The position numbers and the translations under genes were made by a program. The notes below the pieces were generated by a model. It saw only the letters and a list, made by a program, of their open reading frames with translations, was not told the origin of the DNA and made no database searches. From a virus: 31,989 nucleotides of DNA. Positions 2,886 to 21,829 of the stretch are shown here, one piece after another. The DNA is taken from UHGV virus genome UHGV-0114034; one strand, written 5' to 3'. Within the stretch, counting starts at the first letter, position 1. Every line of letters begins with the position of its first letter.

Positions 2886-3200
2886 TTAATTTATTTGTAT
2901 GCCTGCTCTTTCTTCATCGAGTTTTTTTAGCTTGTATCGCATAGCTCTTACTGAATAAATTGAGCGGCAGGTTGCAATTGCTATTTCTTCTGCGGAGAAC
3001 TTACCGAAAAGTGATACTTCGGCTCTTGTCCATCGTCTTCCACGAAGTCGGCTAACAATGTCAGCGCCAATCCTTGTTGCTTTCGCCATTACTGCTTTTT
3101 CAGTCCTTTCCAGTTTTTCAGCGATAACTTCAACTGGCATTGTCGCCGCTACTTCGCGTAAGAAATCGACTTCCCATTTCTCCCATGGAGTCTTTTTCAT
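2886..3200 (-). CDS. hypothetical protein with two helix-rich repeats (possible DNA-binding)
   Basis: 104-aa ORF; two similar modules ([12 protein letters not shown]... and [14 protein letters not shown]...). Confidence 0.4.
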
Positions 3201-14662: not shown

Positions 14663-14847
14663 ACGCCACAATTCAAACGATACCAGAGCTTCTTATCCAG
14701 ACACGAGGCAATCAGACCGAAGTGGCGAGGATGCTTTCCTGCGCAAGAGGAACAGTGCTCAAGTACAACCGAGACAGCAAAGGCGATCGTCACGTAATAG
14801 TTAACGGCGTCCTGATGGTCAAACAGGGAAAGAGGGGAAGACGATGA
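14659..14847 (+). CDS. ninH: NinH-like protein
   Basis: 62 aa; GNQTEVARMLSCARGTVLKY matches lambda NinH core GNQTEVARRLKCSRGTVRKY. Confidence 0.6.
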   Translation: MNATIQTIPELLIQTRGNQTEVARMLSCARGTVLKYNRDSKGDRHVIVNGVLMVKQGKRGRR

Positions 14848-15362
14848 GCATAAGAGAACTAAACCTCACCAAAGAGCAGCACGAGTGGCTGAATGGCTGG
14901 CTTGAACTGTGGGGCGCATGGGTTTATTCAGGTCGTCTTGAAAAGCGCATGAGCAGCGTAATAGCGAAGTTCATGGAGAGCGTAGAGCCGGGAAGAGTTA
15001 TGACAAGGCCAATGTGCAATGATGATGATGGAATGTTGATTTCTCAGGTCGTCGATTCTGTCATGTGCATTGACAAGAAAGCCTTTGGCATCCTCCTCAG
15101 CTACTACGCTCATGGTTCATCTAAGCGAGCAATTGCATCCTACTATCACGCGACTGCAAAGCCACGCAAGATGTGTGGACGCGGTGGCGAGGGATGGAGA
15201 AAACCTTCACTGGCAACCTGTAGAAACGAAATTGACGATATCCTGAAAGCGTCATTATTTGTTTTGTACCAACCAATGCAAAATGCTTTCAAAATGCGTA
15301 AACGTGTTGAGAAAGTTAAGCATGTTGCTGTCAAAATCCTTGACATGCAATTAGCCATTTAG
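14844..15362 (+). CDS. Q: late antiterminator Q (phage 82/21 QuuD-like type)
   Basis: 172 aa; WGAW and RPMCNDDDGMLI motifs as in 82-type Q proteins; last nin-operon gene upstream of pR' and lysis genes. Confidence 0.65.
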   Translation: MSIRELNLTKEQHEWLNGWLELWGAWVYSGRLEKRMSSVIAKFMESVEPGRVMTRPMCNDDDGMLISQVVDSVMCIDKKAFGILLSYYAHGSSKRAIASYYHATAKPRKMCGRGGEGWRKPSLATCRNEIDDILKASLFVLYQPMQNAFKMRKRVEKVKHVAVKILDMQLAI

Positions 15363-15370
15363 CCATAATT
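15340..15370 (+). promoter_or_regulatory. pR'-like late promoter
   Basis: TTGACA (15340-15345), 18-bp spacer, CATAAT (15364-15369), overlapping the 3' end of Q. Confidence 0.5.
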
Positions 15371-15378
15371 AGAAGGTA

Positions 15379-15424
15379 AGCTGCCGTTAGTGACTCTTAA
15401 GTTGCAACGGTAGCTTTTTTTATT
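15379..15424 (+). terminator. tR'-like rho-independent terminator
   Basis: AAGCUGCCGUU ... AACGGUAGCUU hairpin followed by UUUUUUAUUU. Confidence 0.55.
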
Positions 15425-15425
15425 T

Positions 15426-15500
15426 GGGTCAGTCGTATAAAGGTCATTACGGAAGGCTGTTAACCTTCTTATCGTGGTTCGAGTCCACGCTGTCCCGCCA
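15426..15500 (+). tRNA. tRNA-Asn (anticodon GTT), one acceptor-stem mismatch
   Basis: Hand-folded 75-nt cloverleaf: perfect anticodon stem GAAGG/CCTTC, loop CTGTTAA, T-arm CGTGG-TTCGAGT-CCACG, discriminator G, encoded CCA. Confidence 0.6.
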
Positions 15501-15505
15501 AACAT

Positions 15506-15581
15506 GCTGGTTTAGCTCCAATGGTAGAGCGGTCGCCTTGTAAGCGAATGGGTAGCGGTTCAAGTCCGTTAACCAGCACCA
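15506..15581 (+). tRNA. tRNA-Thr (anticodon TGT)
   Basis: Hand-folded 76-nt cloverleaf: acceptor GCTGGTT/AACCAGC, D-arm GCTC-CAATGGTA-GAGC, anticodon loop CTTGTAA, discriminator A, encoded CCA. Confidence 0.6.
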
Positions 15582-15823
15582 TAACTGAGCCGTAGCCACT
15601 GGCTATCCTGAATTCATCAGTGATAGTTACGCTGCGGCCTTCTACGCATGACCTTCGTGAAAGCGGGTGGCATGAGGTTGCCCTAACAACCTCCTGCCGT
15701 TTTGCCCGTGCATATCGGTCACGAACAAATCTGATTACTAAACACAGTAGCCTGGATTTGTTCTATCAGTAACCGACCATATTCCTAATTAAATAGAGCA
15801 AATCCCCTTATTGGGGGTAAGAC

Positions 15824-16147
15824 ATGAAGATGCCAGAAAAAAATGACCTGTTAGCCGCCATTCTCGCGGCAAAGGAACAAGGCATCGGGGCAATCCTTGC
15901 GTTTGCAATGGCGTACCTTCGCGGCAGATATAATGGTGGTGCGTTTACAAAAACAGTAATCGACGCAACGATGTGCGCCATTATCGCCTGGTTCATTCGT
16001 GACCTTCTCGGCTTCGCCGGACTAAGTAGCAATCTCGCTTATATAACGAGCGTGTTCATCGGCTACATCGGTACTGACTCGATTGGTTCGCTTATCAAAC
16101 GCTTCGCTGCTAAAAAAGCCGGAGTAGAAGATGGTGGAAATCAATAA
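15824..16147 (+). CDS. S: class I holin S (dual-start MKM motif)
   Basis: 107 aa near-identical to lambda S as recalled. Confidence 0.9.
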
Positions 16148-16607
16148 TCAACGTAAGGCGTTCCTCGATATGCTGGCATGGTCAGAGGGAACTGATAACG
16201 GACGTCAGAAAACCAGAAATCATGGTTATGACGTTATTGTGGGCGGAGAGCTATTCACTGATTACTCCGATCACCCTCGCAAACTTGTCACGCTAAACCC
16301 CAAACTCAAATCAACAGCAGCCGGACGTTACCAGCTTCTTTCCCGTTGGTGGGATGCCTACCGTAAGCAGCTTGGACTGAAAGACTTCTCTCCGAAAAGC
16401 CAGGACGCTGTGGCATTGCAGCAGATTAAAGAGCGTGGCGCTTTGCCGATGATTGATCGCGGTGATATTCGTCAGGCAATCGACCGTTGCAGCAATATCT
16501 GGGCTTCACTGCCGGGGGCTGGTTATGGTCAGTTCGAGCATAAGGCTGACAGCCTGATTGCAAAATTCAAAGAAGCTGGCGGAACGGTCAGAGAGATTGA
16601 GGTATGA
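16131..16607 (+). CDS. R: endolysin R (lytic transglycosylase)
   Basis: 158 aa near-identical to lambda R ([35 protein letters not shown]...). Confidence 0.9.
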
Positions 16608-17044
16608 GCAGAGTAACCGCGATTATCTCCGCTCTGGTTATCTGCATCATCGTCTGTCTGTCATGGGCTGTTAATCATTACCGTGATAACGCCATTACCT
16701 ACAAAGCCCAGCGCGACAAAGCCACATCCATCATCGCTGACATGCAGAAGCGTCAACGTGATGTAGCAGAACTTGACGCCAGATACACAAAGGAGCTTGC
16801 TGATGCTAACGCTACTATCGAAAGTCTCCGTGCTGATGTTTCTGCTGGCCGTAAGCGGCTGCAGCTCAACGCAAACTGTCCCGCGAACGGAACGACCAGC
16901 ACCGGCGGCCTGGGCGATGTTACCGGCCCCCGACTTACTGACTCCGCTGAACGGGATTATTTCACCCTCAGAGAGCGAATCGTCACAGTGACGAAACAGG
17001 TTGGATATTTGCAGGAATACATCAAAGAGCAGTGTCTTAAGTGA
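16604..17044 (+). CDS. Rz: i-spanin Rz
   Basis: N-terminus [39 protein letters not shown] identical to lambda Rz as recalled; central region divergent. Confidence 0.85.
16803..16991 (+). CDS. Rz1: o-spanin Rz1 (lipoprotein embedded in +1 frame of Rz)
   Basis: [20 protein letters not shown] lipobox, proline-rich core, C-terminal [11 protein letters not shown] as in lambda Rz1. Confidence 0.7.
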
Positions 17045-17064
17045 TTCGTCACCCAAATAACAGA

Positions 17065-17090
17065 GCCTGACTTCGGTCGGGCTTTTTTAT
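17065..17090 (+). terminator. rho-independent terminator after lysis cassette
   Basis: GCCUGAC-UUCG-GUCGGGC hairpin followed by UUUUUUAUU. Confidence 0.6.
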
Positions 17091-17115
17091 TCCCAGAAGA
17101 AGCAGGAGAAGAAGC

Positions 17116-17316
17116 ATGTTAACAGTAAAAGTAATGTCGCCAGGTGGCGGTGAAGAGATTCATTGCGGGTTGAGTGTAGGGTTCAATCCGGGGCAGCAGA
17201 GCATCGCGGTATCGGGAATGGACAAAAATGTATTCCTGAAACCTGGCGAGGTCGCCTACGTGATGAACCAGAACGGGAAGACGGTATCTCGTTACGAGCA
17301 TAATGACCGCCAGTAG
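17116..17316 (+). CDS. small hypothetical protein (moron between lysis and packaging modules)
   Basis: 66-aa ORF with strong RBS AGGAGAAGAAGC-ATG just after the terminator; no recognisable motif. Confidence 0.5.
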   Translation: MLTVKVMSPGGGEEIHCGLSVGFNPGQQSIAVSGMDKNVFLKPGEVAYVMNQNGKTVSRYEHNDRQ

Positions 17317-17767
17317 CCATTCCAAAGCACATCTACGGGTGGGCTTGATAATGAAACCGTGATTTACACCCCACAATCCGGGTATGTAAAAGATAGTTCA
17401 GGCGAGAACAGATTTAACTAAATCTGTGCACCACCAGTTACGGCAGTACCACGAAGCAACCCAAGCCAGTAAGTGGGGAAATAACACTGGCAGCCACTGA
17501 AAGATGAACCTCCTGCCTTATGGCAAAAAAGATTCTTTGTGGTGGCGGACTGATGGAAAGACATCGGTTATTGCAGAGGCCATTCAATGAGTGGTCTCGA
17601 CAATGGCTTATACCCTGCACGGGATAACTTAACTGATATCCATTTTAACGGATAAATGGAGCCAACAATGGCAGAGATTATTCCCATGACTGAAGAACAG
17701 AAATTCCAGTTAGAGAATTACAAACTGGTCATGAACCAGAACGCCGTCGGGCGTGGAGGTTAGCCTG

Positions 17768-18118
17768 ATGCCTGCGTTAATACCGAGAGCATGCCGCAAG
17801 CGTGGCTGCCCTGGCACAACCACTGACCGCTCAGGCTATTGTGATAAACACCGCAATGAAGGCTGGCAACAGCATCAACGAGGTCAGAGCCGACAGCAAC
17901 GGGGATATGGTAGCAAATGGGATGTTCTAAGAGCCACCGTGCTTACTCGGGACAAACATTTGTGCCAGAACTGCAAGCGCAACAATCTGATCTCTCCCGC
18001 AAAGACCGTTGACCACATCATCGCTAAGGCCAATGGTGGCACGGACGACATGAGCAACCTCGAATCTCTTTGCTGGCCCTGTCATAGGTCGAAGACTGGC
18101 CGCGAACGGTTCAAATGA
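17768..18118 (+). CDS. HNH endonuclease (terminase-associated)
   Basis: Start at MPALIP (RBS GGAGG); HNH motif CQNCKRNN...DHIIAKANGGTDDMSNLESLCWPCH; upstream of terS as in HK97-like cos phages. Confidence 0.8.
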   Translation: MPALIPRACRKRGCPGTTTDRSGYCDKHRNEGWQQHQRGQSRQQRGYGSKWDVLRATVLTRDKHLCQNCKRNNLISPAKTVDHIIAKANGGTDDMSNLESLCWPCHRSKTGRERFK

Positions 18119-18315
18119 GAATCAATATCAAATATTTGATTTCAAATGCAATAATTTCATATTTAATGAAAACGATTATCATTTGCTGGGGGGCGGGTCA
18201 AAAGTTCAGACCCCATGCTGCTAAGGACCGCCGCCTAGCCTCTTTTCACATCGCCGCAGGTTAGAAAACTTTTTTATGGGGTCCCCCATTCGATGATTAA
18301 TAGGAGTTTTCGATT
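18119..18315 (+). other. probable cos/packaging recognition region
   Basis: Non-coding gap between HNH and terS: perfect palindrome TCAAATATTTGA (18128-18139), AT-rich block, then G-rich GGGGGGCGGGTC resembling the lambda cohesive-end sequence. Confidence 0.3.
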
Positions 18316-18789
18316 ATGTCTGGACCACCGAAAACCCCGACCCATCTACGTTTGGTAAGGGGTAACCCATCTAAACGCCCGATCAATGAGAACGAACCAA
18401 AACCCCCTTCAGGGGTACCCACAACGCCGAAGCATTTCGACAAGCAGGGGAAATACTGGTTTAAACGGATGGCCGACGAGCTTGATGCTATCGGTGTGAT
18501 GTCTCAGCTGGACGCCAGAGCCCTTGAGCTGCTGGTTGAGGCTTATACCGAATACCGGCATCACTGCGACACGCTTGAAGTTGAGGGCTACACCTACCGG
18601 ACCGAAACGCAGAGCGGGGATGTGCTGATCAAGGCTCATCCCGCCGCCATCATGAAAGCTGATGCCTGGAAACGTCTGCGCGCCATGCTTGGTGAGTTCG
18701 GCATGACGCCAGCCAGTCGCTCGAAAGTGAATGCAAAAGGCCCTGATGCGGTTGACCCGCTGGCCGAGTTTATGAAAGCGAGGGATTAA
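18316..18789 (+). CDS. terminase small subunit (P27/HK97 gp1-like)
   Basis: 157-aa ORF directly upstream of and overlapping the large terminase; family call by recall. Confidence 0.75.
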   Translation: MSGPPKTPTHLRLVRGNPSKRPINENEPKPPSGVPTTPKHFDKQGKYWFKRMADELDAIGVMSQLDARALELLVEAYTEYRHHCDTLEVEGYTYRTETQSGDVLIKAHPAAIMKADAWKRLRAMLGEFGMTPASRSKVNAKGPDAVDPLAEFMKARD

Positions 18790-20525
18790 TGGCTAAGGTT
18801 GCAGAAGGCATCCGCTACGCCGAGAGGGTGGTGGCGGGGGAAATTATTGCCTGTGAGTATGTGCGCCTTGCCTGTCAGCGTTTCCTTGACGATCTGGCAC
18901 ACGGCGAAGAGCGCGGTATTTTCTTCAGTGAGCCGCGCGCACAGCACATTCTGAATTTCTATAATTTTGTGCCTCACGTAAAAGGCGCGCTGGCAGGACA
19001 GCCTATTGAGCTGATGGACTGGCACGTTTTCATCCTGATTAATATTTTTGGTTTCGTTATCCCGCTGGTTAACGAAGAAACGGGAGAAACCGTCCTGCGT
19101 AATGACGGCAGCGGTCGTCCAGTAATGGTTAGGCGCTTTCGTACAGCAGATGTTGAGGTAGCCCGTAAAAATGCCAAATCAACGCTTTGCTCCGGCGTGG
19201 GGCTTTATATGGCTGGCGCCGACGGCGAGGGCGGTGCTGAGGTTTATTCCGCTGCAACCACCCGTGACCAGGCTCGAATTGTTTTTGAAGACGCGAAGAA
19301 TATGGTCAAAAAGGCGAAAGCCACGCTTGGGCGGATCTTCGAATTCAACAAGCTCGCTATCTACCAGGAGCAAACGGCCTCCAAGTTCGAGCCATTATCA
19401 TCAGATGCGAACAACCTCGATGGTCTGAACATCCACTGCGCTATCGTAGACGAGCTGCATGCTCACAAAACCCGTGACGTCTGGGACGTTCTGGAGACGG
19501 CAACCGGTGCGCGTCTGCAATCGCTGCTTTTCGGTATCACCACCGCCGGTTTCAACAAAGAAGGCATCTGCTACGAATTGCGTGATTACGCCATCAAGGT
19601 GCTGCGTGGGCTGGTAAAAGACGATACGTTTTTTGCCATTATCTACACCTTAGATGAAGGTGACGATCCATTTGATGAAAAAGTCTGGCAGAAGGCGAAT
19701 CCGGGGCTGGGTATCTGTAAGCGCTGGGATGACCTGCGCCGCCTGGCTAAAAAGGCGAAAGAGCAAGTTTCGGCCAGAATTAACTTTTTCACCAAGCACA
19801 TGAATATCTGGGTTACCGCTGAGTCAGCCTGGATGGACATGATGAAATGGGAGAAATGCGAGTTTATCGCCCCGCAGCACGAACTTAAAACCTATCCCTC
19901 CTGGGTGGGCGTTGACCTGTCAAACAAAATTGATATCTGTGCGGCCGCTAAAGTCTGGCGGGCGCCAGATGGCCACGTTCATGCGGATTTCAAATTCTGG
20001 CTACCGGAAGGACGCCTTGAGAAATGTTCACGCCAGATGGCAGAGCTCTATCGTAAGTGGGCCGGGATGGACAAGCTGATCCTTACCGACGGTGATGTAA
20101 TCGACCATGCTCAGATTAAGGAAGAGCTACAGCTGTGGGTTGCTGGCGAGAGCATGAAAGAAATTGGCTTCGACCCGTGGAGTGCGACGCAGTTCAGCCT
20201 TGCGCTGGCAGAAGAAGGGTTGCCGCTGGTGGAAGTGCCGCAGACGGTTCGCAATTTCTCTGAGGCGATGAAAGAGGTCGAAGCGCTGGTATACGGTGGC
20301 CGCTTCCATCACAGCGATCACCCGGTGATGAACTGGATGATGTCCAACGTAACCGTCAAACCTGACCGGAACGAGAACATTTTCCCGAATAAGTCCACAC
20401 CAGAGGCCAAAATTGATGGCCCTGCGGCCTTGTTCACAGCAATGAGCCGCGTTCTGGTTAACGGTGGCAACGACCAGCAGGATCTCTCCGGATTCTTCAA
20501 TAATCCCATCATGGTAGGTTTCTGA
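18789..20525 (+). CDS. terminase large subunit (HK97 gp2-like)
   Basis: 578-aa ORF with ATPase and nuclease regions in the position expected for TerL. Confidence 0.85.
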   Translation: MAKVAEGIRYAERVVAGEIIACEYVRLACQRFLDDLAHGEERGIFFSEPRAQHILNFYNFVPHVKGALAGQPIELMDWHVFILINIFGFVIPLVNEETGETVLRNDGSGRPVMVRRFRTADVEVARKNAKSTLCSGVGLYMAGADGEGGAEVYSAATTRDQARIVFEDAKNMVKKAKATLGRIFEFNKLAIYQEQTASKFEPLSSDANNLDGLNIHCAIVDELHAHKTRDVWDVLETATGARLQSLLFGITTAGFNKEGICYELRDYAIKVLRGLVKDDTFFAIIYTLDEGDDPFDEKVWQKANPGLGICKRWDDLRRLAKKAKEQVSARINFFTKHMNIWVTAESAWMDMMKWEKCEFIAPQHELKTYPSWVGVDLSNKIDICAAAKVWRAPDGHVHADFKFWLPEGRLEKCSRQMAELYRKWAGMDKLILTDGDVIDHAQIKEELQLWVAGESMKEIGFDPWSATQFSLALAEEGLPLVEVPQTVRNFSEAMKEVEALVYGGRFHHSDHPVMNWMMSNVTVKPDRNENIFPNKSTPEAKIDGPAALFTAMSRVLVNGGNDQQDLSGFFNNPIMVGF

Positions 20526-21829
20526 TGAAAAAAAACAAACAGCCAGGCAGGGTGAAAAGCGCTCTGCTTAACTGGCTTGGTGTGCCTATCAGCCTGACTA
20601 CCGGCACGTTTTGGGAGGAATGGTTTGGTACCAGCAGCAGCGGAAAGGTGGTCACGGCCGATAAAGCCATCCAGCTATCGGCTGTATGGGCATGCGTAAG
20701 GCTGTTAAGCGAGTCTATTTCAACCCTTCCGCTGAAAATATACGTTCGACAGCCTGACGGTTCGCGTAAAGCGGCAACAGATCATCCGGCTTATTCGATA
20801 CTGTGCCGCCGACCCAATTCAGAAATGACACCATCACGCTTTATGTTGATGGTGGTCGCCAGTATTTGCCTACGCGGTAATGCCTTTGTCGAGAAGCTGT
20901 TTATCGGCAATAAGCTGGTTTCTCTGGTGCCATTGATGCCCCAGAACATGGTAGTAAAGCGGCTGGATACCGGGAGGCTGGAATACACCTACACCGAGGA
21001 CGGCAAAAAACGAGTTATTCCCGAAAAGAACCTGATGCACATCCGGGGATTTGGCCTTGATGGTGTCTGCGGCATGATGCCAATGATGACAGGTCGTGAC
21101 GTGATCGGCGCGGCGATGGCCGTCGAAGAATCCGCTGCAAAGATTTTCGAAAATGGCCTGCAAAGCTCCGGGTTTCTTTCAGCTGACGTGGCGCTTGATA
21201 AGGATCAAAGAGAGCGACTTCGGGGCTATATGCAGGCCTTTACCGGTTCTAAAAACGCCGGAAAAATTATGGTTCTTGAGGGCGGGCTGAAATATCAGAA
21301 CGTCACTATGAACCCGGAAGCAGCGCAGATGCTTGAGTCGCGGTCGTTCAGCATCGAGGAAATCTGCAGATGGTTCCGCGTACCGCCATTTATGGTCGGC
21401 CACACATCGAAACAGAGCAGCTGGGCATCGAGTCTTGAGGGTATGAACCTCCAGTTCCTGACGCACACCCTGCGCCCCCTGCTGGTGAACATAGAGCAGG
21501 AAATAGGACGGTGCCTGCTGGACAGCGATGATGAGGTTTTCGCGGAGTTCTCTGTAGAAGGACTGCTGCGCGCCGACAGCGCGGGCCGTGCTGCGTACTA
21601 TACCAGTGCGCTCCAGAATGGGTGGATGTCCCGCAATGACGTGCGCCGTCTTGAGAATATGCCACCGATTGAAGGGGGTGACATTTACACCGTTCAGCTC
21701 AACCTGACGCAACTGAAAAATCTCGAAAGCAGCAATCCTGCTGTTCAGGCTCTGGCCCTGAGAGAACTGCATAACCACGTATTCCCCGATATTTCCTTTG
21801 AACAATCTCCGCTGAAACAGGCCGCTTAG
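20525..21829 (+). CDS. portal protein (HK97 family)
   Basis: 434-aa ORF after TerL with ATGA overlap. Confidence 0.85.
   Translation: MKKNKQPGRVKSALLNWLGVPISLTTGTFWEEWFGTSSSGKVVTADKAIQLSAVWACVRLLSESISTLPLKIYVRQPDGSRKAATDHPAYSILCRRPNSEMTPSRFMLMVVASICLRGNAFVEKLFIGNKLVSLVPLMPQNMVVKRLDTGRLEYTYTEDGKKRVIPEKNLMHIRGFGLDGVCGMMPMMTGRDVIGAAMAVEESAAKIFENGLQSSGFLSADVALDKDQRERLRGYMQAFTGSKNAGKIMVLEGGLKYQNVTMNPEAAQMLESRSFSIEEICRWFRVPPFMVGHTSKQSSWASSLEGMNLQFLTHTLRPLLVNIEQEIGRCLLDSDDEVFAEFSVEGLLRADSAGRAAYYTSALQNGWMSRNDVRRLENMPPIEGGDIYTVQLNLTQLKNLESSNPAVQALALRELHNHVFPDISFEQSPLKQAA

Follow-up and report, generated by a model that had tools for sequence, protein, structure and literature searches.

What lies between the lysis and packaging genes of a lambdoid prophage when a single small gene there is followed by several hundred base pairs in which no further gene can be recognised? 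This is the question raised by positions 17,116 to 17,767 of a stretch of 31,989 nucleotides from the UHGV virus genome UHGV-0114034 (hereafter the window, to which all coordinates refer unless another record is named). The window is the late region of a mEp235/HK97-like lambdoid Escherichia coli prophage. A preliminary description, made from the sequence alone, had its anatomy right: an open reading frame (ORF) of 66 amino acids (aa) with a strong ribosome-binding site lies just past the terminator that follows Rz, and about 430 bp without a convincing gene is a fair account of what comes after it, there being 351 bp between the stop codon (17316) and the ATG at 17668, or 451 bp if the count is carried on to the start of an HNH endonuclease gene at 17768. 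The 31-aa ORF and the short antisense ORFs reported in that space are also present, the former turning out to be a fragment of a DUF2560 gene. We consider it probable, short of certain, that the region is an accessory-gene zone ending the lysis cassette in the late operon, made up of an occupied cassette carrying the 66-aa gene, an uninterrupted linker and a DUF2560 stump. The features on which this reading depends, all on the plus strand, are the following.

17062 to 17092, plus strand: intrinsic terminator 3' of Rz, called by a terminator scan (stem-loop 17062-17085 and a T-run)
17103 to 17108, plus strand: Shine-Dalgarno sequence AGGAGA of the 66-aa ORF, 7 nt ahead of its ATG at 17116
17116 to 17316, plus strand: gene for a predicted soluble, all-beta 66-aa protein of the phrog_3909 family
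17325 to 17353, plus strand: H1, a 9-bp hairpin with a UACG tetraloop (17325-17346) and the tail GATAATG (17347-17353)
about 17354/17360 to 17439, plus strand: S2, variable non-coding DNA with a local hairpin at 17408-17427
17440 to 17567, plus strand: S3, conserved non-coding DNA resembling a cassette leader and ending in the hairpin CTGATG-GAAAGA-CATCGG (17550-17567)
17576 to 17605, plus strand: H2, a 10-bp hairpin with an AAU loop (17576-17598) and the tail GACAATG (17599-17605)
17606 to 17667, plus strand: S5, a spacer with the GGAG ribosome-binding site (17658-17661) of the DUF2560 remnant
17668 to 17763, plus strand: the 31-aa ORF, remnant of a DUF2560 N-terminus (codons 1-26 are DUF2560, followed by five unrelated codons)

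The 66-aa ORF is a conserved phage gene

Judged by its homologues and predicted structure, the 66-aa ORF is a real gene, far beyond chance, because it matches the phrog_3909 profile over its full length (E 8.1e-37, residues 1-63 against profile positions 1-63 of 64), because a search of 5.8 billion proteins returned 164 homologous clusters, with 22 invariant columns in a 33-sequence alignment drawn from them (65-94% identity to the window protein), and because AlphaFold2 produces a confident model with six beta strands (pLDDT 94.8, pTM 0.80). The fold is predicted to be all-beta, in the manner of a beta-sandwich. Every cluster consists of short 'hypothetical' proteins, and the clusters come from phages and prophages of Enterobacterales (Escherichia, Enterobacter, Klebsiella, Citrobacter, Pantoea, Yersinia and Pectobacterium). 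The T5-like Klebsiella phage Sugarland encodes a homologue, and so do about 85 further records of Klebsiella phages. A profile search across 1.84 billion representatives added few members and no informative fusions, and neither Pfam nor NCBIfam held a matching family. With Foldseek, the fold relatives among viral models were uncharacterised proteins only, the named ones mostly from virulent phages; we take the source phages Av-05, ZL19, Rtp and vB_EcoM-ECP26/VR20 to be virulent. Homology and structure prediction have given the protein a family and a confident all-beta model but no annotated relative. A known lysis or packaging accessory protein, the kind of relative that the preliminary description had set against its own suggestion of a moron, was not among the matches, and no characterised relative of any kind was found. 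One NCBI record of a family member bears the label of an FHA domain, which we rejected, as neither the FHA profile nor the FHA fold was matched.

The protein is predicted to be soluble and near neutral in charge, and the GC content of its gene is ordinary. No signal peptide, transmembrane or hydrophobic segment, or lipobox was detected in it (maximum 15-residue hydropathy 0.43), and Cys17 stands within EIHCG, where there is no lipobox. Identity as a Bor-like lipoprotein was ruled out by the missing lipobox, signal peptide and Pfam match. A Bor-like role in lysogenic conversion is unlikely because the protein has no signal peptide or lipobox, no promoter was found for its gene, and the family also occurs in virulent phages. 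The product would be an accessory of the lytic cycle, a small protein that probably binds or inhibits some protein of the host or of a phage.

A terminator is retained ahead of the gene

The stem-loop at 17062-17085 has 10 pairs (5 G-C) and a TTCG loop, is followed by TTTTTTATT, and is predicted to act as an intrinsic terminator. Only about 10 nt separate its T-run from the ribosome-binding site of the 66-aa gene, and the AGGAGA of that site is kept in every temperate-phage copy of the gene. An intrinsic terminator stands directly 5' of the gene in every temperate context compared. Across prophages, the T-run and the sequence downstream of it are identical and are joined to three different stems (window 17062-17092; loci L134 and L136, both 2950-3000; loci L009 and L010, about 2480-2535), two of which differ by compensatory changes, GAC/GTC versus CGC/GCG. 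The same T-run behind varied and partly compensated stems suggests selection for keeping a terminator ahead of the 66-aa gene. In the T5-like phage Sugarland, the homologue sits amid tRNA genes without a terminator.

The gene has the orientation of the late operon, and promoter prediction returned no sigma-70-like site in 16900-18400, although a weak promoter could be missed by a consensus scan. Because no promoter-like site was found and the terminator is retained upstream in temperate contexts, the 66-aa gene is most likely transcribed only from the Q-antiterminated late transcript. The cassette would be read only when Q-modified RNA polymerase passes the terminator just upstream, and its product would act in lytic growth.

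The end of Rz and the terminator also gave a sub-threshold Rfam match to IsrJ, an Hfq-binding small RNA (sRNA) of Salmonella. The match, the only one near the interval, covers 17016-17086 on the plus strand (27.2 bits, E 0.017; gathering score 37), spanning the last Rz codons and the terminator, which suggests that IsrJ-type sRNAs may derive from the 3' ends of prophage Rz transcripts.

The 66-aa gene is carried on a mobile cassette

The exact 66-aa protein is indexed in 2367 blocks of an assembly collection and is encoded by 19 of 5426 complete E. coli genomes. In six copies examined, the gene begins about 72 nt past Rz or another lysis gene, and the adjoining packaging modules are of four kinds (Nu1/GpA, Terminase_2, DUF2280, and HNH with Terminase_4). 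The other prophage copies match the window at every position (100% identity) from 17020 or 17080 as far as about 17320; over H1, up to 17353, the identity is 80-85%, and beyond that point there is none. This pattern, found in unrelated prophage backgrounds, indicates a mobile unit of roughly 17080-17353. Its place is between genes that are otherwise adjacent: ST64T has H1 straight after Rz, and mEp235 carries other genes there. The occupied cassette would comprise the T-run, the ribosome-binding site, the 66-aa gene and H1, and may move as a unit between prophages.

The gene-free interval is an uninterrupted allele of a known insertion site

After the 66-aa gene, the forward ORFs are merely 28, 35 and 31-35 aa long, and those on the antisense strand reach at most 60 aa, with odd composition and no ribosome-binding sites. 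Two of the latter, of 48 and 60 aa, were rejected as genes on inspection (no Shine-Dalgarno sequence; rich in Cys, Gly and Ser), and so were the ORFs of S3 at 17504-17590 and 17520-17627, which have no ribosome-binding site or PHROG match, are split by a cassette in Sf6 and are truncated in P22. The 'orf-118' annotated in ST64T (L006, 1347-1703) is an artefact, a spurious start in S3 (window 17520) reading in frame into DUF2560.

The DNA itself is common. Positions 17312-17745 are 95-98% identical in P22-like phages (HK620, Sf6, JEP4) and in 1382 of 5426 E. coli genomes. The HK620 counterpart consists of 353 bp of unannotated DNA between hkbL and hkbM together with the first 77 nt of hkbM, its DUF2560 gene; HK97, HK022 and mEp235 share the interval only from 17440 onward, at 96-99% identity. 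The records of HK620, HK97 and HK022 give it no annotation. Pairwise mapping to these relatives resolves it into a patchwork of the H1 region (17312-17359), S2, S3, H2, S5 and the start of DUF2560 (17668-17745). S2 is found in HK620, Sf6 and E. coli 14EC017 and is missing from HK97-like and many P22-like phages; in HK97, HK022, ST64T and Huey, it is swapped for about 24 bp resembling the 3' end of P22 rha. In P22, S3 begins straight after the rha stop codon.

Two points of this patchwork bear inserts in relatives. Gene 66 of Sf6 (126 aa) is inserted at the point equal to window 17565/17567, and P22 has a 634-bp insert with pid (L003, 1690-2323) at the equivalent of 17626/17658. The gene pid encodes an 86-aa protein and is a divergently transcribed moron, on the minus strand of P22, with its own promoter and terminator (PMC8835761). 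Cenens et al. 2013 (PMC3573128) called its locus, between orf25 and orf80, a genuine moron site, with 'no or another insert' in relatives; Wolput et al. 2022 (PMC8835761) also treat it. The window occupies the same genomic site, with 17440-17626 and 17658-17744 being 92% and 98% identical to the pid flanks. It differs from P22 in that its DUF2560 gene (ORF80) is truncated and in that no counterpart of the pid ORF, of its promoter Ppid or of the pid terminator is present in the window; all three lie inside the P22-specific insert.

Variation at the site was followed in 80 IMG/VR loci anchored on the DUF2560 start. About 15 of the 80 have the full uninterrupted interval, and the others show cassettes, deletions (including loss of S2), or an H1-type hairpin joined to the sequence after H2. 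In these relatives, cassettes of 62, 72, 80 and 118-126 aa lie at or just past 17565, with homology resuming at 17567-17589. Both insertion points are vacant in the window, which therefore carries the insert-free allele of a known moron and cassette site. We propose that 17354-17667 is uninterrupted non-coding linker DNA common to P22-like and HK97-like phages.

The cassettes themselves show some regularities. Four kinds occur at the 17565 point (in L020, L042, L091, L059 and L015), the 118-126-aa kind being like Sf6 gene 66, and L020 has two cassettes in tandem, from about 740 to 80 nt 5' of its DUF2560 start. Three of the four kinds end in a GC-rich hairpin and T-run followed by a variant of the H2 hairpin, and the leaders of two kinds repeat an S3-like motif (GCCACTGAA...ATGA). 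In phage Huey (L007, 691-1191 and 1426-1806), the homologue of Sf6 gene 66 in this slot and a gene of about 167 aa upstream of it are labelled 'anti-CRISPR protein'. These labels are probably automated and are unconfirmed; they would be in keeping with a zone of anti-defence cassettes.

The 31-aa ORF is the stump of a DUF2560 gene

At its downstream end, the linker runs into the 31-aa ORF, which matches Pfam PF10834 (DUF2560) with E 4e-8 over profile positions 1-23 of 72 and phrog_23132, a PHROGs family for such DUF2560 stumps, with E 3e-17. Complete DUF2560 proteins are about 80 aa long (P22 ORF80, HK620 hkbM), and the 31-aa ORF covers too little of the domain to be anything other than a fragment. 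DUF2560 homology stops at a mosaic joint at about 17745, and the ORF overlaps the ribosome-binding site of the HNH gene. An identical junction of DUF2560 stump and HNH gene is found in HK97, HK022 and mEp235. The ORF would be a dead 5' stump of DUF2560, left by the recombination that joined the region to the HNH-cos-terminase module.

Paired hairpins lie at the cassette ends

The edges of these homology blocks coincide with two hairpins. H1 has the sequence AAGCCCAUC-UACG-GGUGGGCUU followed by GATAATG, H2 has GAGGCCAUUC-AAU-GAGUGGUCUC followed by GACAATG, and the H2 variant found beside cassettes has AAAGCCAUUC-CCUACA-GAGUGGCUUU followed by GATAATG. H1 and H2 are recognisably paralogous in sequence. 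Each of the three stands directly after a stop codon or cassette end, and H1 follows the stop of whichever gene is upstream in HK620, HK97, HK022, ST64T, Fraca, a Klebsiella prophage and many IMG/VR loci. Homology breaks at H1 from both directions, that of the 66-aa cassette stopping at 17353 and that of the P22-like interval beginning at 17312. Related loci totalling 774 kb hold 130 occurrences of the combination of hairpin and GAYAATG; all but two of them, 128, lie at most 900 bp upstream of a DUF2560 start and none is on the minus strand.

The pairing of H2 is conserved. Over 12 distinct variants, 100% of cells pair, with three pairs changed on both sides, three on one side and none broken, and none of 500 shuffles reached its covariation score or its percentage paired. 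Its G-U pairs are valid on the plus strand only. H1 pairs in 97% of cells over 15 variants. No U-tract follows H1 and the terminator scan did not call it, so that no factor-independent terminator was found directly 3' of the 66-aa gene. The GATAAT of the hairpin tail was rejected as a -10 element, inspection finding no acceptable -35 or extended -10 and the promoter scan being empty.

We infer that H1 and H2 may serve as short recombination homologies for the gain and loss of cassettes, and they may also form plus-strand hairpins in the late mRNA that could, for instance, block 3' exonucleases. A wider proposal, which is tentative and on balance doubtful, is that H1, H2, the H2 variant and the S3-like leaders form an integrase-free cassette array in the late operons of P22-like and HK97-like phages. 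In such an array, recombination at the hairpins would exchange small accessory genes, possibly with anti-defence functions, such as that of the 66-aa protein, Sf6 gene 66 and the cassettes of 62, 72 and 80 aa. The hairpins would in addition be under selection as plus-strand RNA elements that determine how stable the late mRNA is over each cassette.

Lambdoid phages have boundary or linker sequences, which reportedly form part of the modular theory of Susskind and Botstein. Like the lambdoid boundary sequences (the 'bsq' of Sf6), H1 and H2 are short conserved intergenic DNA at mosaic joints, exactly at the edges of homology blocks. They differ in being paralogous hairpins with a fixed GAYAATG tail, on one strand and at one locus, and the bsq annotations in the Sf6 stretch examined do not include them.

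Alternative readings of the region

Could the interval instead be neutral debris, an assembly of cassette leaders, 3' ends and deletion scars whose conservation reflects only recent and frequent horizontal exchange among enterobacterial lambdoid phages? This alternative survives best, and we still regard it as unlikely. All copies of the interval are at least 90% identical, the search yielding no diverged homologues; there are many viable deletion variants, and the H1 of the window contains a mismatch. The likeness of S3 to the leaders of other cassettes, together with the rha-like remnant of about 24 bp in HK97 and HK022, suggests relic origins. Debris does not readily account for an H2 whose pairing stays perfect through six variable pairs, for hairpin elements that recur exactly at cassette ends and on the plus strand only, or for a diversity under that of neighbouring synonymous sites.

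Less likely again is that the interval functions as RNA, either as the gene of a trans-acting sRNA or as a structured cis leader controlling the translation or stability of DUF2560, HNH and terminase messages. The plus strand does fold better than shuffled sequence (z = -4.2, versus -2.7 on the minus strand), and the compensatory changes of H2, with G-U pairs valid on that strand alone, favour this possibility, as does the presence of the interval in about a quarter of the E. coli genomes searched. Nucleotide diversity in the interval (pi 0.024, 42 loci) is close to that of DUF2560 codon position 2 (0.023) and about 4.6-fold under that of position 3 (0.11). Yet Rfam 15 has nothing in 17317-17667 at the gathering threshold or at E up to 5, and the scan of 16900-18400 found neither a promoter nor a canonical bounding terminator for an sRNA. 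The expression table from RNA sequencing of BTP1 lists no non-coding RNA between rha and pid. Several points of the interval accept large insertions and deletions, and the gene that a leader would regulate is a truncated stump in the window. Consensus folding of S3-S5 in 43 unique sequences gave no covariation support beyond H2; outside H2, variable positions broke the predicted pairs, apart from one compatible singleton change each in the stems 17516/17523, 17555/17562 and 17650/17657. STnc6030, an antisense RNA of BTP1, was considered as a candidate for this location and rejected, its paper placing it at the tailspike gene.

The last alternative is the one suggested in the preliminary description, that the 66-aa ORF is a terminator-insulated, bor-like moron expressed from the repressed prophage for the benefit of the host. 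Morons are autonomous units of promoter, gene and terminator expressed from the prophage; they are said to have been defined by Hendrix and colleagues, with lambda bor as an example. The 66-aa gene resembles them as a small extra gene in the lysis-head region, inserted between neighbours adjacent in relatives and lying beside a factor-independent terminator. It differs in having no detected promoter of its own, a terminator upstream instead of downstream, composition that is not atypical, the orientation of the late operon, a product that is no lipoprotein and a family that extends to virulent phages. Although its position is that of lambda bor and P22 pid (PMC3573128), a terminator and a hairpin bracket it, and its rarity and varied prophage backgrounds are as often seen for accessory genes, a conversion moron is very improbable for a co-oriented gene with no promoter-like site and no room for one between T-run and ribosome-binding site, with ordinary GC, no signal peptide, lipobox or transmembrane segment, no U-tract behind its downstream hairpin, and relatives in obligately lytic T5-like and other virulent phages. 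What stands of the suggestion is the location, a documented hotspot for morons and cassettes (pid, Sf6 gene 66), but that hotspot is vacant here and nothing Bor-like was found.

Several observations weigh against our own reading of the region as an accessory-gene zone with a late-expressed cassette and selected hairpins. The end of Rz or the terminator may be overlapped by a promoter of weak or unusual type. The changes in H1 are one-sided only, with no double compensatory pair among them, and in the window copy there is a C-to-A mismatch (17329 opposite 17342). The covariation of H2 comes from essentially two lineages, and outside H2 the rare substitutions mostly break predicted pairs, which also counts against an RNA function of the interval. 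Low diversity in the interval could stem from recent horizontal spread instead of function.

Genomic setting

The zone is set in a late region with the following genes and features.

14844 to 15362: Q antiterminator
15426 to 15500, plus strand: tRNA-Asn (GTT), between the Q antiterminator and holin genes at the start of the late operon
15506 to 15581, plus strand: tRNA-Thr (TGT), also between the Q antiterminator and holin genes at the start of the late operon
15824 to 16147: holin, lambda-type
16131 to 16607: lysozyme R
16604 to 17044: Rz, with Rz1 embedded
17768 to 18118, plus strand: HNH endonuclease (Pfam HNH, E 2e-15), with its own GGAGG site at 17754-17758
18119 to 18315: cos-like spacer between the HNH and TerS genes
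18316 to 18789: small terminase TerS (Terminase_4, Pfam E 9e-25)
18789 to 20525: large terminase TerL

The nearest phage is mEp235, with 98.3% identity over 76% of 14800-21000; it departs from the window exactly at the 66-aa ORF and is 98.8% identical across 17440-18784. Among complete E. coli genomes and phage records, none extends over 80% or more of 17000-17800, and the precise joint of the 66-aa ORF with H1 had no match in a search of genome contigs. The right end of HK97, HK022 and mEp235 (lysis genes, spacer, HNH gp74 and cos) shares with the window the S3-H2-S5 segments, in a spacer that is unannotated there, and the truncated DUF2560-HNH junction. It differs in lacking S2 and in having a KilA-N gene and a small hypothetical gene after Rz in place of the 66-aa cassette.

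The two tRNA genes ahead of the holin gene are arranged alike in E. coli 14EC017 (L002), and the tRNAs of BTP1 are reported at this location. The spacer at 18119-18315 is AT-rich (40% GC), with GGGGGGCGGG and CCGCCGCC motifs, and is similar in part to the matching region of HK022 and of a Klebsiella prophage; the record of phage Fraca begins at a position aligning to about 18239 of the window. The spacer is probably the cos site.

Implications for phage annotation and evolution

What we describe is ordinary phage mosaicism, not a hidden virulence gene. The arrangement is a new mosaic of known kinds of element, to which the unit of terminator and gene and the strand-specific hairpin joints add modest new details. 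Current understanding is not overturned, and the practical gain is better annotation: the 66-aa ORF should be annotated as a conserved phage gene whose function is uncharacterised, the 31-aa ORF as a DUF2560 remnant, and the gap of 350 bp as the insert-free allele of a known site with no overlooked gene. Functional screens of small accessory proteins of phages could reasonably include the 66-aa protein, because it is strongly conserved, has a confident model, occurs in temperate and virulent phages, and is always encoded behind a terminator in prophages. The strand-specific hairpins at cassette ends offer a testable example of how short conserved sequences may organise gene shuffling in the late operons of lambdoid phages.

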